DNA of 64,000 bases from Bacteroidetes bacterium CG12_big_fil_rev_8_21_14_0_65_60_17 (lineage in GTDB: Bacteria > Bacteroidota > Rhodothermia > Rhodothermales > UBA10348). A program made the position numbers and the translations under genes. The notes beneath the pieces are model-generated. The model saw only the letters and a list, made by a program, of their open reading frames with translations, did no database searches and was not told the origin of the DNA. Within the stretch, counting starts at the first letter, position 1, and every line of letters starts with the position of its first letter. This document shows positions 4,650 to 54,570 of the stretch, piece by piece. The stretch is taken from NCBI GenBank assembly GCA_002787815.1, contig PCUY01000072.1, forward strand, positions 30,973 to 94,972, given 5' to 3'.

Positions 4650-6107
4650 CGGCGTGAAAAGGGAGAGCGTGTGCCGAGCCCAGTGGCCCAGGCGGGCCCA
4701 GGGTGAAACAGCAGCCCGCAGGTCCAGCCATACGAACAGCGTCATGGCAAGTCCAAGGATGGCTGTCACGATATTGGCCAGCCACATTCCCAGCCAGGGA
4801 TCCATCAGACCGCGATCGGCAAATTTCTCACCGTTTGCGAGCGAGACCCAGTGGAACATGAAAATAGCCAGCGCTACCACGGCCGACGTGCCCAGTCCCC
4901 CACGTCGGATGGACAGCCCAAGCGGAGCACCGAGAATCATGAACAGAAAACAGGACAGAGCCATGGAGTACTTCTTGTGTATCTCGACCGTGTAGCGGTC
5001 CGCCCGTTCCGATGTGAACCGGACGGTACGGTGTCCCGAATCTATGCTGGTACGGAGCGCACGGGCGGTTTCACGGGCCGTTTCCAGCAGCAGGGCGCGG
5101 CCCGTGGAATCGGCCTCGGAAGGCTCAATCGGCGCCGGGAAAGCATTTCCGACATCCCGGCCACGCAGCAGAAGCCTACCCTGTGATGATCGCTGCCAGG
5201 CCTGGTCACTGAGTGTTCCATCTCCAAGCCTCAGGACCTGTTCAGCCAGTTCGTTCTTCTTGGCGCGTGCGGTCTGGTGGAGACTGTCGACCAGGGCAAT
5301 CATGGCCGATGACGGCATGGTCCTGTCATTCCGGTTTACCTGGTTTGGATCGGTTCGGCGAAAATCCAGATCGTCGAGCGAAATACGAAGCAGTTGTCGG
5401 TCGAACGACATACGCTCGTAGCGGTCGGGAACGGTTCCGGAACCCGGTCGCGGCCTGTGTACTTCCCCGTCGAAGAGCGTCAGCAGCAGCATGCGCCCGT
5501 TGTTCCGGGTTTGCAGTAACCCCCGCTCCGCCGTGATGTCTGTACGGAAGCGGACGCCGGAAGAGTAATCGTAGAGCGTCACGCCATACAATTCATTTGG
5601 ATTCTCTTCCGGAATATGCCGGACGAGCATGCGGTAGTTGTCAATTCCGTCGTACACGACGCCTGCCCGCAGGTCGAAGCCGGGTTTTGCTTCCCGGATG
5701 TTTTTCCAGAGCGTGAACGCCCGGAAATTGGCCTCCGGATGAATCTGCGTATTGAAAACCCACATACCACCCGAGAGCAGCATTCCCACGATCCACACCG
5801 GCCAGACGAGTTGTACGAAGCTGACGCCGGATCCCCGTATCACGGTCCAGGCCTGGGTCTCGGCAAGACGGCCAAATGCCATGAGCGTGGAAATGAGGGC
5901 AGCCATGGGTACAGCCAGTACCAGCATGTATGCCAGGTTGTACGAGATGAGTTCAAAAATCACGCGGACGGGGAGGCCCTTCCCAACGAGCTGCGGTAGG
6001 TACTTGATCAGGAACTGCATGACAAGCAGGAACAGCAGCACGAGAAGCCACGCCACGAACGGGCCCGGCAGCATGCGGAGCATCATCTTGTGAAACTGTT
6101 TCGTCAT
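4635..6107 (-). CDS. LptF/LptG-family (YjgP/YjgQ) LPS export permease
   Basis: N-terminus MTKQFHKMMLRMLPGPFVAWLLVLLFLLVMQFL, six predicted TM helices and a large periplasmic insert. Start set at the ATG at 6107 rather than the ORF-track 6140. Confidence 0.8.
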   Translation of the reverse strand: MTKQFHKMMLRMLPGPFVAWLLVLLFLLVMQFLIKYLPQLVGKGLPVRVIFELISYNLAYMLVLAVPMAALISTLMAFGRLAETQAWTVIRGSGVSFVQLVWPVWIVGMLLSGGMWVFNTQIHPEANFRAFTLWKNIREAKPGFDLRAGVVYDGIDNYRMLVRHIPEENPNELYGVTLYDYSSGVRFRTDITAERGLLQTRNNGRMLLLTLFDGEVHRPRPGSGTVPDRYERMSFDRQLLRISLDDLDFRRTDPNQVNRNDRTMPSSAMIALVDSLHQTARAKKNELAEQVLRLGDGTLSDQAWQRSSQGRLLLRGRDVGNAFPAPIEPSEADSTGRALLLETARETARALRTSIDSGHRTVRFTSERADRYTVEIHKKYSMALSCFLFMILGAPLGLSIRRGGLGTSAVVALAIFMFHWVSLANGEKFADRGLMDPWLGMWLANIVTAILGLAMTLFVWLDLRAAVSPWARLGHWARHTLSLFTPMNHR

Positions 6108-9153: not shown

Positions 9154-9771
9154 ATGACATACCAACGCTTTTTCCTTCCCCTTTTTCTCACGGCCACACT
9201 TGCCATGCTTCCCGCAGGTGCCCATGCCCAACTCGGCGTGGCCGCCGGCCTTAATTTTGCATCAATAGACGATATCGACGTATCGGGCGGTCGCGGCAAT
9301 TTCGACAGCGCAACGGGCTACCATGTCGGTGCCTTTTACGATCTGGGATTGGGACCTGCCGCGTTGCGGCTTGGTCTCTTCTACAGGGACATGGGCGATG
9401 TAGACGTATCGCTCGCCGGCATCCGGGAGTCGTTCGATGTGACCCTGATTGACATTCCGTTTGACCTCCGGTTTGATGTCATGGCCACACCCGTTGTCCG
9501 TCCCTATATCCTGGTTGGGCCCGTGTTCTCGTTTGCCTCGAGTGACAACGATGACTTCGACAGTGCACTGAAGGATGTCCAGGTGGCTGGCAATGTCGGC
9601 GTCGGTCTATCCATAAACGCAGGTGTCGCACACCTATTCCCGGAAATCCGTTACAGCGTCGGGCTGTCGCGATTCATGGATGACGATGCTACAGTGCGTG
9701 GTGTCCGGTTCTCGGCCGACGACACGCAAAGACAGAACAGCGTGATGCTGCGTCTCGGTCTGCGTTTCTGA
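9154..9771 (+). CDS. small outer-membrane beta-barrel protein
   Basis: Signal peptide ending AGAHAQ, an alternating hydrophobic pattern, and a C-terminal aromatic terminus (LRLGLRF). Confidence 0.7.
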   Translation: MTYQRFFLPLFLTATLAMLPAGAHAQLGVAAGLNFASIDDIDVSGGRGNFDSATGYHVGAFYDLGLGPAALRLGLFYRDMGDVDVSLAGIRESFDVTLIDIPFDLRFDVMATPVVRPYILVGPVFSFASSDNDDFDSALKDVQVAGNVGVGLSINAGVAHLFPEIRYSVGLSRFMDDDATVRGVRFSADDTQRQNSVMLRLGLRF

Positions 9772-18486: not shown

Positions 18487-19270
18487 AAGAATGTGTTTTG
18501 CCCTGCTCGCTGGTGCGTTTTTGATGGCGGGTTGTGACAGCGCACCAGGAACGGAAGACGTTTTCCAGCAGCCTCCGGTCGTCGGGGGACTGGTGGTTAC
18601 GCCCGATATCGTGGCAGCGACGCCGGGAGCCGAGACCCAGGTCGAAATCCTGGTCTCCTTTACGGCTACCGATGCCAACGACGATCTGGATCAGGTTTTC
18701 GTGACCGTCCAGGCAAGTGCGTCGGGAGGGGCACCACTCGGACAGGAAATCCTGCCGGCCACGCGCGGACGGCAGGAGGCCCGCGTACTTGTGACGTTGC
18801 CCGCGGGTACGGCCGGATCCTTTCCGGTCGTGGTGACGGCGTCGGACGCGCGAGGCTCGGTGGGCAACAAGCTGGTTGGCCGGTTGGATGTCACGGGCTC
18901 AAGTGCGCCTCCGGAAATTGTCGACATCGATATGCCGGACACGGCGCAGCGGCCGACCGCGGGGCAACCGCCCGTCACCATACCCATCGTTGCCACCGTG
19001 ACCGATCCGGACGGGCGTGCCAACATTGCTCGGGTGGAGGTGGTTGTCAATGGTAGCGTCACACTGCTGCTTTGTGATGACGGGGACAGGGGTACGTGCA
19101 ACGCCGGTTTTGGCTCAAGCGGCGATGAGACGGCAGGAGACGGCCGGTATACGCTGACGATCGCACTTGCCGCTGAAAATGCCGCTGGACCGAACAGCTT
19201 TACGTTCAAGGCAGTCGACCGGACAGGTCTCGAAAGTGCGCCCGTCACCCGAATCCTGGAGGTCCAGTGA
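18476..19270 (+). CDS. lipoprotein with two Ig-like repeat domains
   Basis: Lipobox LMAGCDS. Two internally similar beta-rich repeats (TATDANDDLDQVFVTV / TVTDPDGRANIARVEVVV). Confidence 0.65.
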   Translation: MYSERMCFALLAGAFLMAGCDSAPGTEDVFQQPPVVGGLVVTPDIVAATPGAETQVEILVSFTATDANDDLDQVFVTVQASASGGAPLGQEILPATRGRQEARVLVTLPAGTAGSFPVVVTASDARGSVGNKLVGRLDVTGSSAPPEIVDIDMPDTAQRPTAGQPPVTIPIVATVTDPDGRANIARVEVVVNGSVTLLLCDDGDRGTCNAGFGSSGDETAGDGRYTLTIALAAENAAGPNSFTFKAVDRTGLESAPVTRILEVQ

Positions 19271-20859
19271 TGTCACAAAACCGTGCGTTCCCGCCTCCTG
19301 TAAAGCGATCCGTATGGACGTGGCATCGCCTGACAGGTATCCTGACACTCGTTATCGCGCTGTCTGGCGATGCCATGGCGCAGGCAGTTGACCTGCCGGT
19401 CAGCGAGTTTGGCGTACTGAACAACAGCGTTGCCAATCTTCACGTACGGGGTGACTCGGTCTGGATAGGCCCCTTCCTGAACCTGACCGTCGATGACGGT
19501 GCGACATTTCATCGTGCAGATAGCGACTCCCTGTTCGGAACCATAAATCGCCTGTTCTCCATTGATGTCGAAAACGACGTGGTGGCAGCGGGTATTGGAC
19601 GTGCCGACAACAGCAACGGCGATGGCGTCCAGACGGCAGCCGGATTTTTGATCAGTGAGGATGGTGGCAACACCTTCCGGTTTCGATTCCCTCAGCTTGA
19701 CAATCCCGACGACACCACCATCGTGTTCGGAATCAATACGTTACCGGCTCTTCCCATCATTGCCCCGCAACAGAGTCCACCGTTCGACATCGATGTGGAT
19801 CTGGCGTCGGGCTCCCTGTGGGTTGCAGGGTGGGCCAGTGGCATCCGTCGTTCGGACGACCTGGGTCGCTCGTGGTCGCGGGTGGTTCTGCCTCCGGACG
19901 ACCTCGATTTCGTCTCACCAGATTCAATACATCAATTCACGGTGGAACCCCAACTTGCCGGATCGGGCTCGCTGAACCACATGGGTTTTTCTGTCCTGGT
20001 AGATGCGACGGGGACTGTCTGGGCCGGTACCGCAGGCGGTCTGAACCGCTCCACTGACGGCGGGCATTCCTGGCAGCGCTTCAAAACGGATGGTACCACC
20101 TCGTCACTGACCGGCAACTGGGTTATTTCCATTGAGGAGCAGCCGACCGGCAGCGGCCCGGTTGTGTGGGCGGCCACGTGGAATACAGGCGATGTGGGTG
20201 GCGGAATCAACGGCCAGTTCGGTGTGACCTATACCGCCGATGGGGGTGCAACCTTCAATCAGTCACTGCATGGAGAGCGCATCTTTGACTTCGCGTTCGC
20301 AGGGGACCGGGTGTACGCCGCCGGTGACAATGGTCTGTTCATCAGCGAAGACCAGGGAAGGACGTGGTTCACCATATCGGACTTCCGCGACAAAAGCGAT
20401 CCGTCCCGTCTGGTCCGGCCCGGTTCAAGTGTGTTCTCGGTGGATGTGACACGAAGTGGATCGCTCTGGGTGGGCACGTCGGATGGACTCCTGGTCTCCC
20501 GGGACGGTGGCCTCAGCTGGACCATTTTCCGGACCGATGTACCTGTCAATCCGGACGTGCCGTCGGGCCGTGTCCCCGATGTCGATACGTTTGCCTATCC
20601 CAACCCGTTCTCACCCAGTTCGGATGTATTCATCCGGGTCAAATTCGAGTCGGACCGGGATGGACAGGCCGATCTGCGTGTGTTCGATTATGCCATGAAT
20701 GCAGTCAGAACCGTTTCCGCTCCCATCGTTGCGGGTACGAGTGAGTTGCTGTGGGATGGGCAGGATGACCGAGGTACCCGCGTAGCGAACGGCGTCTATT
20801 TCTATGAAGTCGAAACCGGGAATGACCGGTTCCGAGGCAAGATCCTGGTGATTGAATGA
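19267..20859 (+). CDS. BNR/Asp-box repeat (Ycf48/sialidase-like beta-propeller) protein with FlgD-Ig/T9SS-like C-terminal domain
   Basis: Six Asp-boxes (SEDGGNTF, SDDLGRSWS, STDGGHSWQ, TADGGATF, SEDQGRTWF, SRDGGLSWT). C-terminus FAYPNPFSP...LRVFDYAMNAVRT...LLWDGQDDRGTRVANGVYFYEV. Confidence 0.75.
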   Translation: MMSQNRAFPPPVKRSVWTWHRLTGILTLVIALSGDAMAQAVDLPVSEFGVLNNSVANLHVRGDSVWIGPFLNLTVDDGATFHRADSDSLFGTINRLFSIDVENDVVAAGIGRADNSNGDGVQTAAGFLISEDGGNTFRFRFPQLDNPDDTTIVFGINTLPALPIIAPQQSPPFDIDVDLASGSLWVAGWASGIRRSDDLGRSWSRVVLPPDDLDFVSPDSIHQFTVEPQLAGSGSLNHMGFSVLVDATGTVWAGTAGGLNRSTDGGHSWQRFKTDGTTSSLTGNWVISIEEQPTGSGPVVWAATWNTGDVGGGINGQFGVTYTADGGATFNQSLHGERIFDFAFAGDRVYAAGDNGLFISEDQGRTWFTISDFRDKSDPSRLVRPGSSVFSVDVTRSGSLWVGTSDGLLVSRDGGLSWTIFRTDVPVNPDVPSGRVPDVDTFAYPNPFSPSSDVFIRVKFESDRDGQADLRVFDYAMNAVRTVSAPIVAGTSELLWDGQDDRGTRVANGVYFYEVETGNDRFRGKILVIE

Positions 20860-21884
20860 GGCGATTGTTTACATGGCTGTTTCTCGCTGGAGCACTGGTG
20901 TTGGCTCCCGTCTCCGTTGTCTCGGCGCAGAACGCCGGCGCGTTCACGCGAATAGGGTTCGGGGCGCGTGGTATTGCCCTGGGTAACGCCATCGCCGGAG
21001 ACGTGTCCGGTATGGCGTCTCCGTGGTACAATCCAGCCCACGCGCCCCGAACCTCTTCCCAGCACCTTGCGGCCACCGCCGGACTGTTGTCCTTCGATCG
21101 ATCGGTGCAGTACCTGCAGCTTGGTGCGCCGCTGCAGGGACGTGCCGGTTTTGCCGCCGGACTCATCCATGCGTCGGTAACGGATATTGACGGACGTGAC
21201 AACAGTGGATTCCATACGGGAAACCTCAGCGTGGACGAATATGCCGGATTTCTGGCATTCGGCTTGAATTTCAGTGAGCGCCTGGCCGGCGGATTGTCGT
21301 TCCAGTTCTTCCGAAGCGACCTGTTTGAGGGATTATCGGCCGCCCGATCTGTGGGTATTGATGTTGGCTTCAGTTATCGCCTGCGTGAGCACTGGGGATT
21401 GGGCCTCGTGATCGATGACCTGTTGGCAAGGTATACATGGGACTCCTCGTCCATTTCTTCAAGTGGACGCAGTGTGACCGATAATTTCCCGAGACGGATC
21501 AGGGGAGGGGTAACACATACCCGCATGGACGGTAGATTGCATCTCCTGGCCGAAATTGAATCGAGGACGACCAACGTGGATGTGCGGGTTCGCGAGACGC
21601 GTCTGTTTGGCGGCTCGGTGGTGCAGACCGAGCGCAATGACGATATCACACTCCAGGAGTGGCGCGTGCGTTACGGGGCGGAATATGCGCTGGCGCCAGG
21701 TTTCACGCTTCGGACGGGGCTCGAACAGTTGGGTGAGGATGCTTTTGACTCTGTTCGTCCATCACTCGGTTTCCGGGCCGTTATACCTGTGGGTGAACTG
21801 AATCTTCGGGCCGAGTACGTGTTTGCCTGGGAAGCCCAGGCCGGTGGTCGACTCAACCTGTTCACCGTGGTGCTGGACCTGTGA
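20856..21884 (+). CDS. PorV/PorQ-like outer-membrane beta-barrel protein (paralog 1)
   Basis: Signal peptide ending VSAQ. The N-terminal motif AGAFTRIGFGARGIALGNAIAGDVSGMASPWYNPA resembles PorV/PorQ family N-termini. Barrel-like alternation throughout. Confidence 0.6.
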   Translation: MRRLFTWLFLAGALVLAPVSVVSAQNAGAFTRIGFGARGIALGNAIAGDVSGMASPWYNPAHAPRTSSQHLAATAGLLSFDRSVQYLQLGAPLQGRAGFAAGLIHASVTDIDGRDNSGFHTGNLSVDEYAGFLAFGLNFSERLAGGLSFQFFRSDLFEGLSAARSVGIDVGFSYRLREHWGLGLVIDDLLARYTWDSSSISSSGRSVTDNFPRRIRGGVTHTRMDGRLHLLAEIESRTTNVDVRVRETRLFGGSVVQTERNDDITLQEWRVRYGAEYALAPGFTLRTGLEQLGEDAFDSVRPSLGFRAVIPVGELNLRAEYVFAWEAQAGGRLNLFTVVLDL

Positions 21885-49880: not shown

Positions 49881-50165
49881 TCAGGCCGCTTTCTGGGCAT
49901 CCGGAATCCGGACGTCCCCACGCGAGTCAGCTTCCACATACGGGGCATCCTCGGTCATGCGGGCAGATGGTTCCATGTCATCCATGAGGCGATGAACGGC
50001 AAAATCACCGAGTAACAGCATGGCCCAGGTGGTACATCCGGCAGAACCGGCCCACAGGAGGGAGGGTGCCAGTCCGGAACCAGCCTGCAACAGGTTGGTG
50101 GCGGTCAGTGCGGCGACCAGCAAGCTGAACTGTATGATGAGGCTTCGCATGGGATATGGAATCAT
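49881..50165 (-). CDS. small two-TM membrane protein with acidic tail (function unknown)
   Basis: I shortened the ORF-track ORF (to 50237) because a sigma-54 promoter lies inside its 5' end. In-frame ATGs lie at 50165 and 50150. The gene ends 26 bp upstream of the sigma factor gene. Confidence 0.5.
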   Translation of the reverse strand: MIPYPMRSLIIQFSLLVAALTATNLLQAGSGLAPSLLWAGSAGCTTWAMLLLGDFAVHRLMDDMEPSARMTEDAPYVEADSRGDVRIPDAQKAA

Positions 50166-50182
50166 GGTTCGACTCCATGTCA

Positions 50183-50198
50183 TGCAAAGCGTGTGCCA
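50183..50198 (-). promoter_or_regulatory. sigma-54 (-24/-12) promoter
   Basis: The minus strand reads TGGCAC-ACGCT-TTGCA, matching every specified base of the TGGCAC-N5-TTGCW consensus with exact spacing. It points at the small membrane protein and fliA-type genes. Confidence 0.7.
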
Positions 50199-50309
50199 GC
50201 GGTCAACACCCGTGCGCCCTGCAACGCTGAAAACCACCTCTTAGAGGCCTTAAGGGCATAAAAGACCCCTGTATTCCTGTAGTGAGTGGCAGGTCAGTCC
50301 ACGCGGGAA

Positions 50310-50360
50310 CGGAAAAATATTCCGTGATCCGGGCTTGTGTCGAGCGGAAGATATTTCCGC
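50310..50360. promoter_or_regulatory. two dyad-symmetric candidate enhancer (UAS) sites for the sigma-54 activator
   Basis: cGGAAaaataTTCCg (50310-50324) and gCGGAAgatatTTCCGc (50344-50360). Both are 5-N5-5 dyads with centres 35 bp apart, about 120 and 155 bp upstream of the -24 element. Confidence 0.5.
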
Positions 50361-50370
50361 AGGCCACCGG

Positions 50371-51771
50371 TCACGTCAGATACCCTTCCTCGCGATATTT
50401 CTTCAGTTTGTTGCGAATGGTACGGGCACTGATACCCAGTTTGTCGGCTGCCTTCTGCTGATTGTTTCCACTTTCCTCGAGTGCCTCGAGAATCATGTGT
50501 CGCTCCATGTCCTCGATGGTATCATGATGGGAGGCGCCGTCCGACTGGCCAGACCGGGACGACCCGGCGTCGGAGAAGAAACTGTCGTACACGTCCGGGA
50601 CGTCGACGAGGGGACGGTCGGCCGAGAGGAGCACACCCCGCTGGATCATGTTTTCCAGTTCCCGCACATTCCCGGGCCAATCCTGCTCCAGCAGACGCTG
50701 CATCAGGGCATCTGAAATGTCTTTTGACGGCAGTCCGTAGAGACGGCAGTATTTCTGTGCGAAATGCCGTGTCAGAAGCGGCACGTCATCCATCCGCTCT
50801 GAAAGTGGGGGAACGGTAAGTGGAAAAACAGCCAAGCGGTGATACAGGTCTTCGCGGAACAACCCCTCAGCAATGGTCTGCGAGAGGTTGCGGTTGCTCG
50901 TTGCAACCACGCGGACATCCACCTTTTTTACTTCCGCTGAACCGATTTTCTGGACCTCCTGCTCCTGGAGCACCCGCAGCAACTTTGCCTGGATGGGAAG
51001 ATCGATCTCGGTGATTTCGTCGAGCAGCAGCGTCCCTCCGTCGGCGCGTTCAAATGCACCCGTCATGTCTTCCACGGCGCCGGTGAAGGCACCCTTGCGG
51101 TGGCCGAACAAGTGGCTTTCCACCAGATCGCGGGGGAGGTTCGCACAGTTCAGCGCCAGATATGGCCCGCTCGCACGATCACTCTCATTGTGTATCAGCC
51201 GGGCGAGAATCTCTTTACCGGTTCCGCTTGCCCCCTGGATGAACACGGGAGCGCGGTTTCTGGCTACACGCGGCAGCATGTCTTTCAACCTGCGAATGGG
51301 CCCGGACTGGCCCACGTACATGTCATCCACCGAACCCTGTGCCGCACTGCCCGGGCCGCGTTGTGTGCGGCTCTTTCCTGCAGCAGCGGTTTCTTCCGGA
51401 AGTGGCGTGTCGAGGGATTTCTGGACGCGCTCCACCAGTTCGGCGGCGGTAAATGGTTTCGGGATATAGTCAATGGCGCCATGCTGCATCATCCGTACGG
51501 CGTGCTGTACGTTGGCGTGTGCCGTGACCATGATCACGCGTGTCGTCGGGTAATGCTCACGGATGTGACTGAGCAATGAAAACCCGTCCATGTCGGGCAT
51601 CATGAAGTCGGTGACGACAATGTCAAACGACTCTCCAGCCAGGATATCGATGGCCTGGACAGCGCTGGAAGAGCATGTCACGTCAAAGCCGTGACGGGAG
51701 AACAGGCGCTCGAACAGGTTGTGGAGTAGATGTTCGTCATCGACGAACAGGAGCCGGGGGGTGTGTGACAT
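50371..51771 (-). CDS. sigma-54-dependent response regulator (NtrC/FleR-type enhancer-binding protein)
   Basis: REC domain (LLFVDDE...VVTDFMMPDMDG), an AAA+ domain with Walker A GASGTGKE and the GAFTGA loop, and a C-terminal Fis-type HTH (QQKAADKLGISARTIRNKLKK). Confidence 0.92.
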   Translation of the reverse strand: MSHTPRLLFVDDEHLLHNLFERLFSRHGFDVTCSSSAVQAIDILAGESFDIVVTDFMMPDMDGFSLLSHIREHYPTTRVIMVTAHANVQHAVRMMQHGAIDYIPKPFTAAELVERVQKSLDTPLPEETAAAGKSRTQRGPGSAAQGSVDDMYVGQSGPIRRLKDMLPRVARNRAPVFIQGASGTGKEILARLIHNESDRASGPYLALNCANLPRDLVESHLFGHRKGAFTGAVEDMTGAFERADGGTLLLDEITEIDLPIQAKLLRVLQEQEVQKIGSAEVKKVDVRVVATSNRNLSQTIAEGLFREDLYHRLAVFPLTVPPLSERMDDVPLLTRHFAQKYCRLYGLPSKDISDALMQRLLEQDWPGNVRELENMIQRGVLLSADRPLVDVPDVYDSFFSDAGSSRSGQSDGASHHDTIEDMERHMILEALEESGNNQQKAADKLGISARTIRNKLKKYREEGYLT

Positions 51772-51851: not shown

Positions 51852-52592
51852 TCAGTCTGTCGGCGGCAGGGTAAGCACGAAGACCGTTCCGTTTTCGGGA
51901 GAACTCCCCTCAAGGACGAGCGTGCCTTTGTGCAAACGGGCAATCTGCTCGGCAAGTGGCAAACCCACACCCAGATTCCAGGCCTTCGTCGTGTGGAATG
52001 GCTGAAAGATGAGGTCCGGTGAGGTTTTGTGGCTGAGCGTACCCTCGTTGTGCACCTGTATGTGAATGGGGGGATTCGCGCCTGGTGCCGGGTTTCCCCG
52101 CGACAGGGTTATGGTTACGGGTGTTTTCTCGTGGTGTGTGGCCTCCAACGCATTCGTCACAAGGGCCATGACCGCCTGGCGCAGGGCTTTCGGGTCCGCC
52201 ATGACCCGCTGTCCCACGGGCAGGTTCATGTCAAAGCGTACGCGACGGGCATCCGTATCCGGAAGAATGCGTTCCAGGTGACGAACAACGTCGGTCAGCA
52301 CGACCGATCGCAGAACGACGTTGGGGTTCGCATGGTACAGGTCCAGGTCCTCCAACACGGATTCAATACGCCGGACACTCTCCAGGATCCTGATGCCGGA
52401 CTCCCTGTCCTCGGTTTTCGAAAGCGACGTCATGAGAAGCTCCGTATAGCCTTCTATACCACTCACAAGACTGCCTATCCGGTGGCGGAGTACCTGGGCA
52501 AACTCCCTGAATGGGGCCTCCTGTGCGGGTTGTTCGGCACCGCGCCTGACGGCCGGCCTGTTCCGGGCTATATTTCTGGATGTTTTTGACAT
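51852..52592 (-). CDS. soluble histidine kinase lacking any sensor or TM domain
   Basis: H-box FAQVLRHRIGSLVSGIEGYTELL, N-box LVTNALEA, and G/F boxes (HNEG, FQPFHTTK, GVGLPLA). Only 246 aa, so HisKA + HATPase alone. Confidence 0.8.
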   Translation of the reverse strand: MSKTSRNIARNRPAVRRGAEQPAQEAPFREFAQVLRHRIGSLVSGIEGYTELLMTSLSKTEDRESGIRILESVRRIESVLEDLDLYHANPNVVLRSVVLTDVVRHLERILPDTDARRVRFDMNLPVGQRVMADPKALRQAVMALVTNALEATHHEKTPVTITLSRGNPAPGANPPIHIQVHNEGTLSHKTSPDLIFQPFHTTKAWNLGVGLPLAEQIARLHKGTLVLEGSSPENGTVFVLTLPPTD

Positions 52593-53502: not shown

Positions 53503-54345
53503 TCAGGCAGCAAGTCTGAGGGCGCCACTGCCTGACAGTCGGCGGGCCTCATCAATGCGTCCCTGTTTGATGTTCAGTGCCACAAGACGTCGACGCAGAA
53601 GCTGGCTCTCGGATCGAGTTTCGTAGAATGCCGTGTAGAGCGTGAGTGCTTCTTCCTGCCACCCCTGTTGGGCAATGGCCTGAATGACCTTGTCGGCCTC
53701 GGTCTCTTCAAGGTTCCGGATCATGATAGATGCGACGGCCGTGGCATCGCCCGGGTTATTGCGGTACAGGGCAAGCCTGAAACAATCCTCGCGCAGGGGA
53801 GCAGGCATGGTCTCAATCCCCTCCGGGTATGCACTTTCAAGGTGATCAGCTACATCATCCCATTTTCCGAGTTGCCAGGACCAGGCGGCCAGAAGCGTGT
53901 GCGTCTCGGTCGTTGAGAGCACGGTATCCCAGGTTGTCTTCGTGTCGCCGACGGCCAGGTTGGACATGTGCAGATAGGCCGCCAGATAGTCTTTGCGACC
54001 GGCAAGCACATTGACCTGGATCATGTGCGATGCCAACTGGTTCGGGAACAGGTCCAATGAACGGCCTGCCATGCGACGGGCAGGTTCCGTAGCGCCCAGT
54101 CGTCTCTGGGCTTCGGCCAGTGCCATTTCCATGGCGGCCCGTTCCTCCGGGTGGAATATCCGGGGCTGATCCATGGCTTGGCGCGCCTCGGCCGAGGCGG
54201 CCTCCCAGTTGCCATTTCGCATATGGTTCCAGATGGGAACGAGCGACGAGTAGGGGAGGTCGTCGCAGTCGAACGAGAGTTCGGGTACGCGGTAGCCGCT
54301 CAGAAAAGATTCTTCGCGGGGCTGGAGTGTGAGTTTGCGCATCAT
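53503..54345 (-). CDS. helical-repeat (TPR-like) hypothetical protein, first gene of the regulatory operon
   Basis: Repeated helical hairpins (GNWEAASAEARQAM, GKWDDVADHLESAY, GWQEEALTLYTAFYE, QGRIDEARRL). I trimmed the start to the ATG at 54345 because a terminator and a sigma-54 promoter occupy the ORF-track 5' extension. Confidence 0.5.
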   Translation of the reverse strand: MMRKLTLQPREESFLSGYRVPELSFDCDDLPYSSLVPIWNHMRNGNWEAASAEARQAMDQPRIFHPEERAAMEMALAEAQRRLGATEPARRMAGRSLDLFPNQLASHMIQVNVLAGRKDYLAAYLHMSNLAVGDTKTTWDTVLSTTETHTLLAAWSWQLGKWDDVADHLESAYPEGIETMPAPLREDCFRLALYRNNPGDATAVASIMIRNLEETEADKVIQAIAQQGWQEEALTLYTAFYETRSESQLLRRRLVALNIKQGRIDEARRLSGSGALRLAA

Positions 54346-54403
54346 GACGGTTCGGAATTTTGTGCTGTCCGGGTGTCCCGGTGTTCTTGTCTTCCCGTCG
54401 ATA

Positions 54404-54419
54404 TGCAAAGGGCCTGCCA
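54404..54419 (-). promoter_or_regulatory. sigma-54 (-24/-12) promoter upstream of the regulatory operon
   Basis: The minus strand reads TGGCAG-GCCCT-TTGCA (one mismatch to TGGCAC-N5-TTGCA, exact spacing), 59 bp upstream of the proposed ATG at 54345. Confidence 0.6.
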
Positions 54420-54539
54420 ACGATGAAATACGCTCTGGCGTCCCGAAAACCGTATGACGAATCGTGAACAGGCGGTAATCCTTTCCTGAAGGAGCGCAAA
54501 TATTTCCCATGTCGCGTTGCGAACAGCCCTGTTACAGAG

Positions 54540-54570
54540 AAGGCCCGGAGCGCATTGCGCTCCGGGCCTT
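54540..54570 (-). terminator. GC-rich stem-loop terminator downstream of rplU-rpmA
   Basis: AAGGCCCGGAGCGC-att-GCGCTCCGGGCCTT forms a perfect 14-bp stem with a 3-nt loop, about 80 nt after the rpmA stop. The minus-strand trailer is UCUCUGU, which is only weakly U-rich. Confidence 0.6.

Follow-up and report, generated by a model that had tools for sequence, protein, structure and literature searches.

Several polar flagellates control their flagellar genes through hierarchies that combine a two-component system, sigma-54, and the flagellar sigma factor sigma-28 (FliA). In Vibrio cholerae, fliA is a class II gene that depends on sigma-54 and FlrA, and FlrBC, a two-component system with a soluble kinase, acts with sigma-54 on class III (PMC6504787). 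More generally, two-component systems that are associated with flagella and use a cytoplasmic kinase are found together with FlhF and FlhG (PMC7064773). Our literature search found no description of flagellar gene regulation in the Rhodothermales (Rhodothermota, relatives of the Bacteroidota). Here we analyze a 64,000-nucleotide stretch of contig PCUY01000072.1 (the window, with positions counted from its first letter) from an uncultured Rhodothermales bacterium, in which a sigma-54 promoter and two dyads upstream of it stand in front of a gene for a small membrane protein and a fliA gene. The conserved promoter and the two upstream activator sites very probably switch on FliA and the small membrane protein, and we consider it likely that the locus, taken as a whole, is the regulatory node of the flagellar hierarchy of this bacterium.

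The V. cholerae system resembles this locus in that sigma-54 and an enhancer-binding protein lead to fliA and from there to the late genes, in that both combine a soluble kinase with an NtrC-class regulator (PMC6504787), and in that FlhF and FlhG are present in the Rhodothermales lineage as well. The two differ in how fliA is reached. In Vibrio, fliA is activated by unphosphorylated FlrA and lies inside a flhA-flhF-flhG-fliA region, and the FlrC sites are mostly downstream of the transcription start site (TSS), whereas the predicted direct activator of fliA in our locus is a two-component regulator with upstream sites, and the fliA promoter would be its own, shared only with the small membrane protein. 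FleSR of Pseudomonas and FlgSR of Campylobacter and Helicobacter share with the locus a cytoplasmic kinase without transmembrane (TM) segments and an activator with receiver (REC) and AAA+ domains that works with sigma-54, and they belong to polar flagellates with FlhF/FlhG (PMC7064773), but they activate rod and hook genes rather than fliA, which is the predicted direct target here. Moreover, PAS domains are present in FleS and FlrB, but the kinase of our locus has no sensor domain and is encoded together with an HDOD protein and a tetratricopeptide repeat (TPR) protein.

The Rrp2-RpoN-RpoS cascade of Borrelia burgdorferi likewise runs from a two-component, NtrC-class activator through sigma-54 to the gene for a second alternative sigma factor, but its output is RpoS rather than sigma-28 and is nonflagellar; Rrp2 reportedly works with no defined enhancer site. 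In the fla1 system of Rhodobacter sphaeroides, fliA is also sigma-54 dependent and activated by enhancer-binding proteins, in this case FleQ and FleT, which are not phosphorylated response regulators; FleT has neither a receiver nor a DNA-binding domain. FleT is mentioned in a paper that describes Helicobacter pylori FlgR as lacking a DNA-binding domain (PMC3162934).

The locus would follow the logic of known two-component/sigma-54/sigma-28 hierarchies of polar flagellates, as a well-supported though fairly ordinary example of them. What sets it apart is fliA as the predicted direct target of a two-component system, the sensor-less kinase, the HDOD and TPR partners, the probable autoregulation, and the separation from the flagellar cluster. 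The known regulatory logic is extended to a new phylum-level group, and current understanding is not overturned. The locus also offers a wiring that can be tested, consisting of a kinase that lacks a sensor domain, its HDOD and TPR partners, an activator with a GGAA-N5-TTCC site, two sigma-54 promoters, and fliA as the output.

Promoter conservation across the Rhodothermales

An initial sequence-only reading of the window had proposed an exact sigma-54 −24/−12 element on the minus strand, and this proposal held. The sequence TGGCACACGCTTTGCA at 50198-50183 has no mismatch to TGGCAC-N5-TTGCW: TGGCAC occupies 50198-50193, ACGCT forms the spacer, TTGCA occupies 50187-50183, and the GG and GC are exactly 10 bp apart (Table 1 lists the features discussed here). 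It is the only exact match in the window, where 0.08 would be expected, and at least one match occurs in 8 of 100 shuffles. From its position, transcription of the small gene and fliA is predicted to start near 50172, ~12 nt downstream of the −12 C. Single-window statistics are only moderate; what lifts the promoter and the dyads above chance is their conservation at orthologous loci.

We compared the window with 80 Rhodothermales loci that carry a FliA ortholog, taking one genome per species (individual loci are given L numbers). In type (a) loci, the gene order is that of the window, TPR-HDOD-kinase-activator-small-fliA-ppiD (L001-L010, L012, L014, L015, L017, L020, L028, and L031). In type (b) loci, the kinase-activator pair is inverted and divergent from small-fliA. 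In type (c) loci, Pfam assignments give the order flhB-flhA-flhF-flhG-small-fliA-ppiD, which on megabase contigs extends to motA-motB-fliL-M-N-O-P-Q-R-flhB-A-F-G-small-fliA.

The promoter element, written as NGGCA[CT]-N5-TTGN, is found in 71 of the 80 loci when the gene strand is scanned from −520 to −60 relative to the fliA ATG. Its density is 1.98/kb upstream of fliA versus 0.035/kb elsewhere in the loci, a 57-fold enrichment, and its distance to the conserved start of the small open reading frame (ORF) is always 34 to 66 nt. We also aligned the spacer from the activator stop codon to the small-ORF ATG in 10 type (a) sequences (alignment A2; mean identity, 43%). Nearly all of the invariant columns fall in the GGAA/TTCC of both dyads, in TGGCA, in TTTGC, and in the ATG, so that the conservation check suggested at the outset came out positive for both the promoter and the dyads. 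In type (c) loci, the element lies inside the short spacer between flhG and the small gene, which argues that sigma-54 control of small-fliA is older than the rearrangement upstream of it described below.

The −12 C of sigma-54 promoters is normally near-invariant. In most Rhodothermales lineages, however, the −12 TTGC of the fliA-upstream promoter has become TTGT or TTGA (for example, TGGCATACATCTTGTT), while the −24 TGGCA is unchanged. This drift, revealed across the order, may reflect a lineage-specific preference of sigma-54.

Table 1. Positions of the features discussed, in the window or, where an L number is given, in a comparison locus
Feature	Position	Strand	Basis or remark
FliA (sigma-28), 253 aa	49093..49854	minus	Pfam and NCBIfam
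Small protein, 89 aa	49881..50150	minus	Conserved start; AF2 model
Inverted repeat ATGGAGTC-N7-GATTCCAT	50156..50178	minus	Spans predicted TSS, ~−6 to +17
Sigma-54 promoter TGGCAC-ACGCT-TTGCA (−24/−12)	50183..50198	minus	Exact match and conservation
Proximal enhancer dyad ACGGAA-N5-TTCCGT	50309..50325		Exact match; center −145 from predicted TSS
Distal enhancer dyad GCGGAA-N5-TTCCGC	50344..50360		Exact match; center −180 from predicted TSS
NtrC-class response regulator/sigma-54 enhancer-binding protein, 466 aa	50371..51771	minus	Pfam
Histidine kinase, 246 aa, minimal cytoplasmic	51852..52592	minus	Pfam HisKA and HATPase_c
HDOD-domain protein, 290 aa	52619..53491	minus	Pfam HDOD, E = 8e-16
TPR-like protein, 280 aa	53503..54345	minus	Weak TPR Pfam hits
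Second sigma-54-type promoter TGGCAG-GCCCT-TTGCA	54404..54419	minus	One mismatch; predicted TSS near 54393
Two probable activator sites, GGGAAATATTTGCG (54508-54495) and AGGAAAGGATTACCG (54487-54473)	54473..54508	minus	Predicted binding
fliR-flhB dyad and promoter-like element after it	L051:~275, L054:~237, L040:~24, L071:~82, L072:~75, L073:~149, L085:8728-8830, L086:8739-8800
Opposite-strand sigma-28-type promoter	L003:~5530-5557, L005:~5455, L007:~3831 and ~3731, L010:~1661, L012:~4395	minus
Opposite-strand sigma-28-type promoter, continued	L017:~4331, L020:~5514, L031:~5130, L035:~5572	minus

Paired dyads as a candidate enhancer

Two 5-N5-5 dyads had been pointed out upstream of the promoter, and their coordinates, spacing, and distances proved correct. 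The motif CGGAA-N5-TTCCG has only two exact matches in the window, CGGAAAAATATTCCG (50310-50324) and CGGAAGATATTTCCG (50345-50359), compared with 0.09 expected, and none of 100 shuffles contained two. Each dyad in fact extends to 6-N5-6. Center to center, they are separated by 35 bp, at distances of 120 and 155 bp upstream from the −24 GG, and the distal dyad begins 10 nt past the activator stop codon (50371-50373), as had been reported. They have the properties of NtrC-type enhancers, being 15- to 17-bp dyads that are paired, phased, and at least ~80 bp upstream. Dyads of this size with 35/45-bp phasing suit enhancer-binding proteins of the NtrC class with a Fis-type helix-turn-helix (HTH).

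Type (a) loci have paired GGAA-N5-TTCC dyads spaced either 35 bp or 45 bp apart, the latter being one helical turn more, and the distance from dyads to promoter ranges from 125 to 282 bp, as expected of an enhancer. In type (b) loci, single related sites (GGTAGGATTTTCC and similar) occur in the divergent spacer. Paired dyads co-occur with an adjacent activator gene in the compared loci, and it would be this adjacent activator that binds both dyads.

The dyad motif can be tied to flagellar genes because it is also found between fliR and flhB. In type (c) loci (Rhodothermus-type, Salinibacter-like, and others), a single GGAA-N5-T[TG]CC dyad lies just past the fliR stop codon and before flhB, and 55 to 90 bp further on is a (T/C)GGC(A/G)C-N5-TTTC element upstream of flhB. 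The latter probably serves the same regulon as a second sigma-54 promoter; its −12 region is unusually T rich.

The sigma factor and its flagellar relatives

The promoter had been read as facing a mini-protein gene and, 26 bp beyond it, a gene for a sigma-28-family factor, and gene identification agrees with this. The gene that follows the small ORF after a gap of 26 nt scores 197 bits against the FliA/WhiG model TIGR02479 (cutoff, 189.6), and its product carries sigma-70 regions 2, 3, and 4 according to Pfam; the small ORF and fliA are predicted to be cotranscribed as a bicistronic unit. FliA orthologs are 54 to 96% identical to the window protein, the closest relatives being metagenome-assembled genomes at 96%. 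In type (c) loci, the gene ends the flagellar cluster (the flhF-flhG-small-fliA arrangement is seen in L021, L058, L085, and L086), and the annotated flagellar cluster of Roseithermus sacchariphilus likewise has the FliA gene at its end (PMC7409140, Table 4). Because its orthologs end flagellar clusters in this way, Roseithermus included, the sigma factor of the window is, on comparative grounds, a genuine flagellar sigma-28 (FliA) ortholog, and the small ORF is the partner conserved upstream of it.

Gene order indicates that in the window lineage the cluster upstream of the small ORF has been replaced by rplU-rpmA and the TPR-HDOD-kinase-activator genes, that is, by rearrangement; ppiD lies downstream of fliA in both arrangements. 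The sequence-only reading had spoken of a resemblance to FleSR/FlrBC-FliA hierarchies without flagellar genes nearby. The second half of this statement stands insofar as none were found among the window ORFs that were scanned. The first half undersells the case because the sigma/small-ORF pair is orthologous to the pair that ends the flagellar cluster in sister Rhodothermales. Judged by these orthologies, the locus almost certainly represents the flagellar hierarchy itself, rearranged in the window lineage, rather than a look-alike.

The activator and its operon

The gene upstream of the dyads had been called an activator from its GAFTGA motif (at ~51093), and Pfam agrees in finding Response_reg (REC), Sigma54_activat (AAA+, E = 1e-63), and Fis-type HTH_8 domains in its product. 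In the neighboring kinase, Pfam detects no sensor domain, and the NCBIfam matches are to generic kinase cores only. A cytoplasmic HisKA/HATPase_c kinase together with a REC/AAA+/HTH regulator is the composition seen in flagellum-associated two-component systems. In other assemblies, the kinase is called as a 193-aa protein, which would remove HisKA (residues 29-85 of the 246-aa reading). The 246-aa reading is more plausible because the shorter call loses the phospho-acceptor domain.

The HDOD gene is syntenic with the kinase and activator genes in type (a) loci, and its product is a probable signaling adaptor of the module. Adaptor roles in the regulation of flagella are known for HDOD proteins, SadB among them (PMC6543031, PMC12075610). 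The TPR gene had been called from 53503 to 54510 (335 aa), but its true start is the ATGATG at 54345 (MMRKLTLQP...), giving 280 aa; this start, ATGATGCG, is conserved among relatives, and independent gene calls also give 280 aa. The C terminus of the window's TPR protein (53503-53515) reads LRLAA.

The overlong 335-aa call contains the second sigma-54-type promoter, 54419-54404. In an alignment of 12 orthologous regions (A5), TTGGC and TTTG are invariant at this promoter. The two sites upstream, GGGAAATATTTGCG and AGGAAAGGATTACCG, are GG[AT]AA-N4-5-T[GA]CC variants of the fliA-proximal dyad, and their columns are kept in the same 12 loci. Because the activator's own operon has a conserved sigma-54-type promoter, the relay appears to be autoregulated: the TPR-HDOD-kinase-activator operon is probably sigma-54 dependent and under positive control by its own product.

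The small protein with two predicted helices

The 118-aa ORF call for the small gene had been suspected of being too long, and comparison bears this out. All orthologs begin MR(S/A)(L/I)..., which corresponds to ATG 50150 in the window. In 23 of 43 loci, this methionine is the only possible start, there being no start codon upstream of it before an in-frame stop, and the 29-codon N-terminal extension of the 118-aa call is not conserved. An independent gene call (P0174) gives an 89-aa product identical to that from 50150. Two gene starts are thus corrected in this locus, the small ORF being 89 rather than 118 aa and the TPR protein 280 rather than 335 aa.

The AF2 model of the small protein (pLDDT 63) has two helices, at residues 2-24 and 29-67, and ends in an acidic tail that is disordered; on this model a two-TM membrane protein is predicted. 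The two helices also agree with the mini-protein originally proposed. A profile search with the small protein gave 91 proteins of an unannotated family, in which every match with a named source was from the Rhodothermales. A small membrane protein family in the position of FlgV is thereby defined as Rhodothermales specific.

FlgV of the Campylobacterota (HP1033b/Cj0062c) is a protein of ~104 to 118 aa with two TM segments that is encoded between flhG and fliA and forms a ring at the MS/C-ring junction, and the Rhodothermales small protein is like it in size, two-helix architecture, and gene position (PMC10655999); in type (c) relatives, the small gene also lies between flhG and fliA. The sequences themselves differ. 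FlgV has GFFxG in TM1, where the window protein reads QFSLLVAAL and its relatives read QFSGLxGLL, and the Rhodothermales proteins, unlike FlgV, have an acidic tail ending in AA. The profile search from the small protein recovered no Campylobacterota FlgV, and homology is not indicated. Because there is no detectable sequence similarity and GFFxG is absent, we treat the small protein as a putative positional and topological analog of FlgV rather than as a homolog or member of that family.

Of 39 orthologs of the small protein, 32 have AA as their last residues ([LIK]AA-stop), which recalls an ssrA/ClpXP-type degron; the corresponding codons in the window are at 49881-49895.

A sigma-28-type promoter on the opposite strand in relatives

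Between the dyads and the −24/−12 element, relatives of the window carry on the opposite strand a sigma-28-type promoter, TAA[AG]-N14-16-GCCGAT[AT]N. Of the 16 matches to this pattern in 797 kb of loci, 11 fall in the spacer upstream of the small ORF. At the equivalent place in the window (~50246-50256), it is degenerate, with CTTAAG alone kept, and the same is true of L001 and L002; TAAA-N15-GCCGATAA sigma-28-type promoters were not found anywhere in the window. In L035, the sigma-28-type promoter faces the divergent kinase-activator operon, which suggests feedback by FliA. In loci with the window's architecture, an antisense transcript from it would cross the enhancer and enter the 3′ end of the activator gene.

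The GTATCGGC...CTTAAG block of the relatives was also considered as an IHF site. It fits WATCAA-N4-TTR poorly, and we dropped this reading because, taken on the opposite strand, the block matches a canonical sigma-28 promoter (TAAG-N15-GCCGATAC).

Proposed mechanism and alternative explanations

In the mechanism that we propose, the sensor-less cytoplasmic kinase would phosphorylate the adjacent NtrC-class regulator, its input probably being delivered via the co-encoded HDOD and TPR proteins. The phosphorylated activator would bind the two GGAA-N5-TTCC dyads, which are centered at ~−145 and ~−180 relative to the start, reach sigma-54 RNA polymerase at TGGCAC-N5-TTGCA by DNA looping, and use ATP to open the promoter. 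Transcription from near 50172 would yield a bicistronic mRNA for the 89-aa two-TM protein (start, 50150) and FliA, which would in turn act on late flagellar and chemotaxis promoters at other places in the genome. From the promoter at 54419-54404, the operon of the activator is probably under the activator's control as well. A far more speculative version, which we consider quite improbable, holds that the FliA module has left the flagellar cluster and come under a sigma-54 circuit that activates itself and whose kinase, lacking a sensor domain, is gated by the HDOD and TPR proteins. In this circuit, the two-TM protein with its ssrA-like AA would serve as a membrane-anchored, proteolysis-controlled sigma-28 partner or anti-sigma factor that replaces the FlgM checkpoint.

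A number of observations weigh against the proposed relay. At the promoter, a GGAG (50176-50173) and an ATG (50165) would sit at or before the predicted TSS, and an inverted repeat (50178-50156) crosses this TSS and also covers the same ATG. A weak sigma-70-like match (9/12; 50343-50316) overlaps the dyads, weak 9/12 matches being the most that a sigma-70-type scan of the window gave, and the terminator scan found no terminator between the activator gene and the small ORF, so that read-through is possible. Loci without an adjacent activator gene, with the exception of L021, have no exact GGAA-N5-TTCC upstream of small-fliA. On the flagellar side, scanning of all but a few of the window ORFs against Pfam and NCBIfam, which left several without a family match, found no flagellar gene. 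A search for FlhA gave no match tied to a genome of the same architecture; the matches were tied only to loci without the adjacent activator operon, and two FlhA loci on megabase contigs are likewise of the flagellar-cluster type. The RpoN box (RRT[VI].KYR) is absent from six-frame translations of the window and the 80 loci, and the literature yielded no relevant report on rpoN or sigma-54 in Rhodothermus and Salinibacter. We infer that this genome has rpoN, because a GAFTGA activator is present, and that it has flagellar genes.

Some of these points would suit a module in which the promoter and enhancer are real but which has been uncoupled from flagella, its FliA being a paralog by function that runs a nonflagellar regulon in the manner of the sigma-28/WhiG-type factors of Chlamydia or Streptomyces. 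Here, rplU-rpmA and the regulatory operon indeed take the place of the flagellar cluster found ahead of small-ORF/fliA in sister lineages, the 64 kb hold neither a flagellar gene nor a sigma-28-type promoter that we could find, and no FlhA match is tied to a same-architecture genome. Nevertheless, FliA is 54 to 96% identical to orthologs inside flagellar clusters and is followed by ppiD in both arrangements, the FlgV-like partner gene has been kept, the dyad motif also occurs upstream of flhB in relatives, and same-architecture relatives retain the TAAG-N15-GCCGATAC sigma-28-type promoter in this very intergenic region; flagellar genes are, besides, commonly dispersed over genomes. On balance, uncoupling seems to us unlikely. 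We think it quite unlikely, too, that the −24/−12 element is functional while the dyads are either sites of some other regulator or RNA hairpins that end or stabilize the activator transcript. Each dyad could form a 6-bp hairpin, the first one starts 10 nt after a stop codon, and the flhB-proximal dyad of relatives also directly follows the stop codon of fliR. Against hairpins or terminators, the GGAA/TTCC is invariant without the compensatory changes of an RNA stem, no T-run follows, the terminator scan did not flag the dyads, and similar sites occur in divergent spacers where they follow no gene end. Another regulator would leave it to be explained why the paired dyads track the adjacent activator gene and why their 15- to 17-bp size and 35/45-bp phasing suit Fis-type HTH enhancer-binding proteins.

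There is, finally, the reading in which the motifs are due to chance, a housekeeping promoter or read-through from the activator operon accounts for transcription of the operon, and translation covers all 118 aa of the longer ORF call. It can draw on the single exact −24/−12 match that also arises in 8 of 100 shuffles, on the weak sigma-70-like match at 50343-50316, and on the missing terminator after the activator gene. The comparative data largely refute it, however, since both the place and the sequence of the element are kept throughout the order, the 29-codon extension is not conserved, no start codon lies upstream of the MR.. methionine in 23 of 43 loci, and the product of the independent call P0174 is the one that starts at 50150; we regard it as scarcely credible. 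The sigma-54 relay to a flagellar FliA is therefore the reading that we prefer.

Inverted repeats and other features of the window

The inverted repeat at 50156-50178 has a fold z of −3.3 for the window. Only the closest loci (L001-L006) have similar repeats at the TSS position, and the arms there differ in sequence; for example, they are GGTGAGGG/CCCTCACC in L003 and CGAATTCATGTT/AACATTGATTCG in L004. We considered a conserved RNA hairpin in the 5′ untranslated region and rejected it as a general element: the mean fold z over 40 leaders is −0.3, the repeat is significant only in the window and L001-L006, and its 5′ arm is upstream of the predicted TSS. Rfam gave no family match across the whole window. 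The half-sites of this repeat resemble the dyad (GGAG-N11-TTCC).

A strong hairpin, GGCCCGGAGCGCAATGCGCTCCGGGCC, lies at 54542-54568 (minus strand) after rpmA and is a probable terminator of the rplU-rpmA unit. A short hairpin, CCGGGACACCCGG, lies at 54369-54381 (minus strand), at roughly +13 to +25 counted from the TPR-operon promoter; L001 and L002 vary in the loop and inner stem of this hairpin (CCGGGATGCCCGG and CCGGAATATCCGG). The leader of the TPR operon also holds a conserved GAACAAACC motif.

The rest of the window contains housekeeping and type IX secretion genes, including gyrA, dnaG, ppk, panCD, phoH, dapF, lysA, rplU, and rpmA. Type IX components or cargo at 86-931, 9154-9771, and 19267-21884 comprise Por_Secre_tail, a PorT/SprT-like barrel, a PorZ-like C terminus, and the PorV/PorQ family, and the presence of type IX secretion genes fits a Bacteroidota-related lineage.

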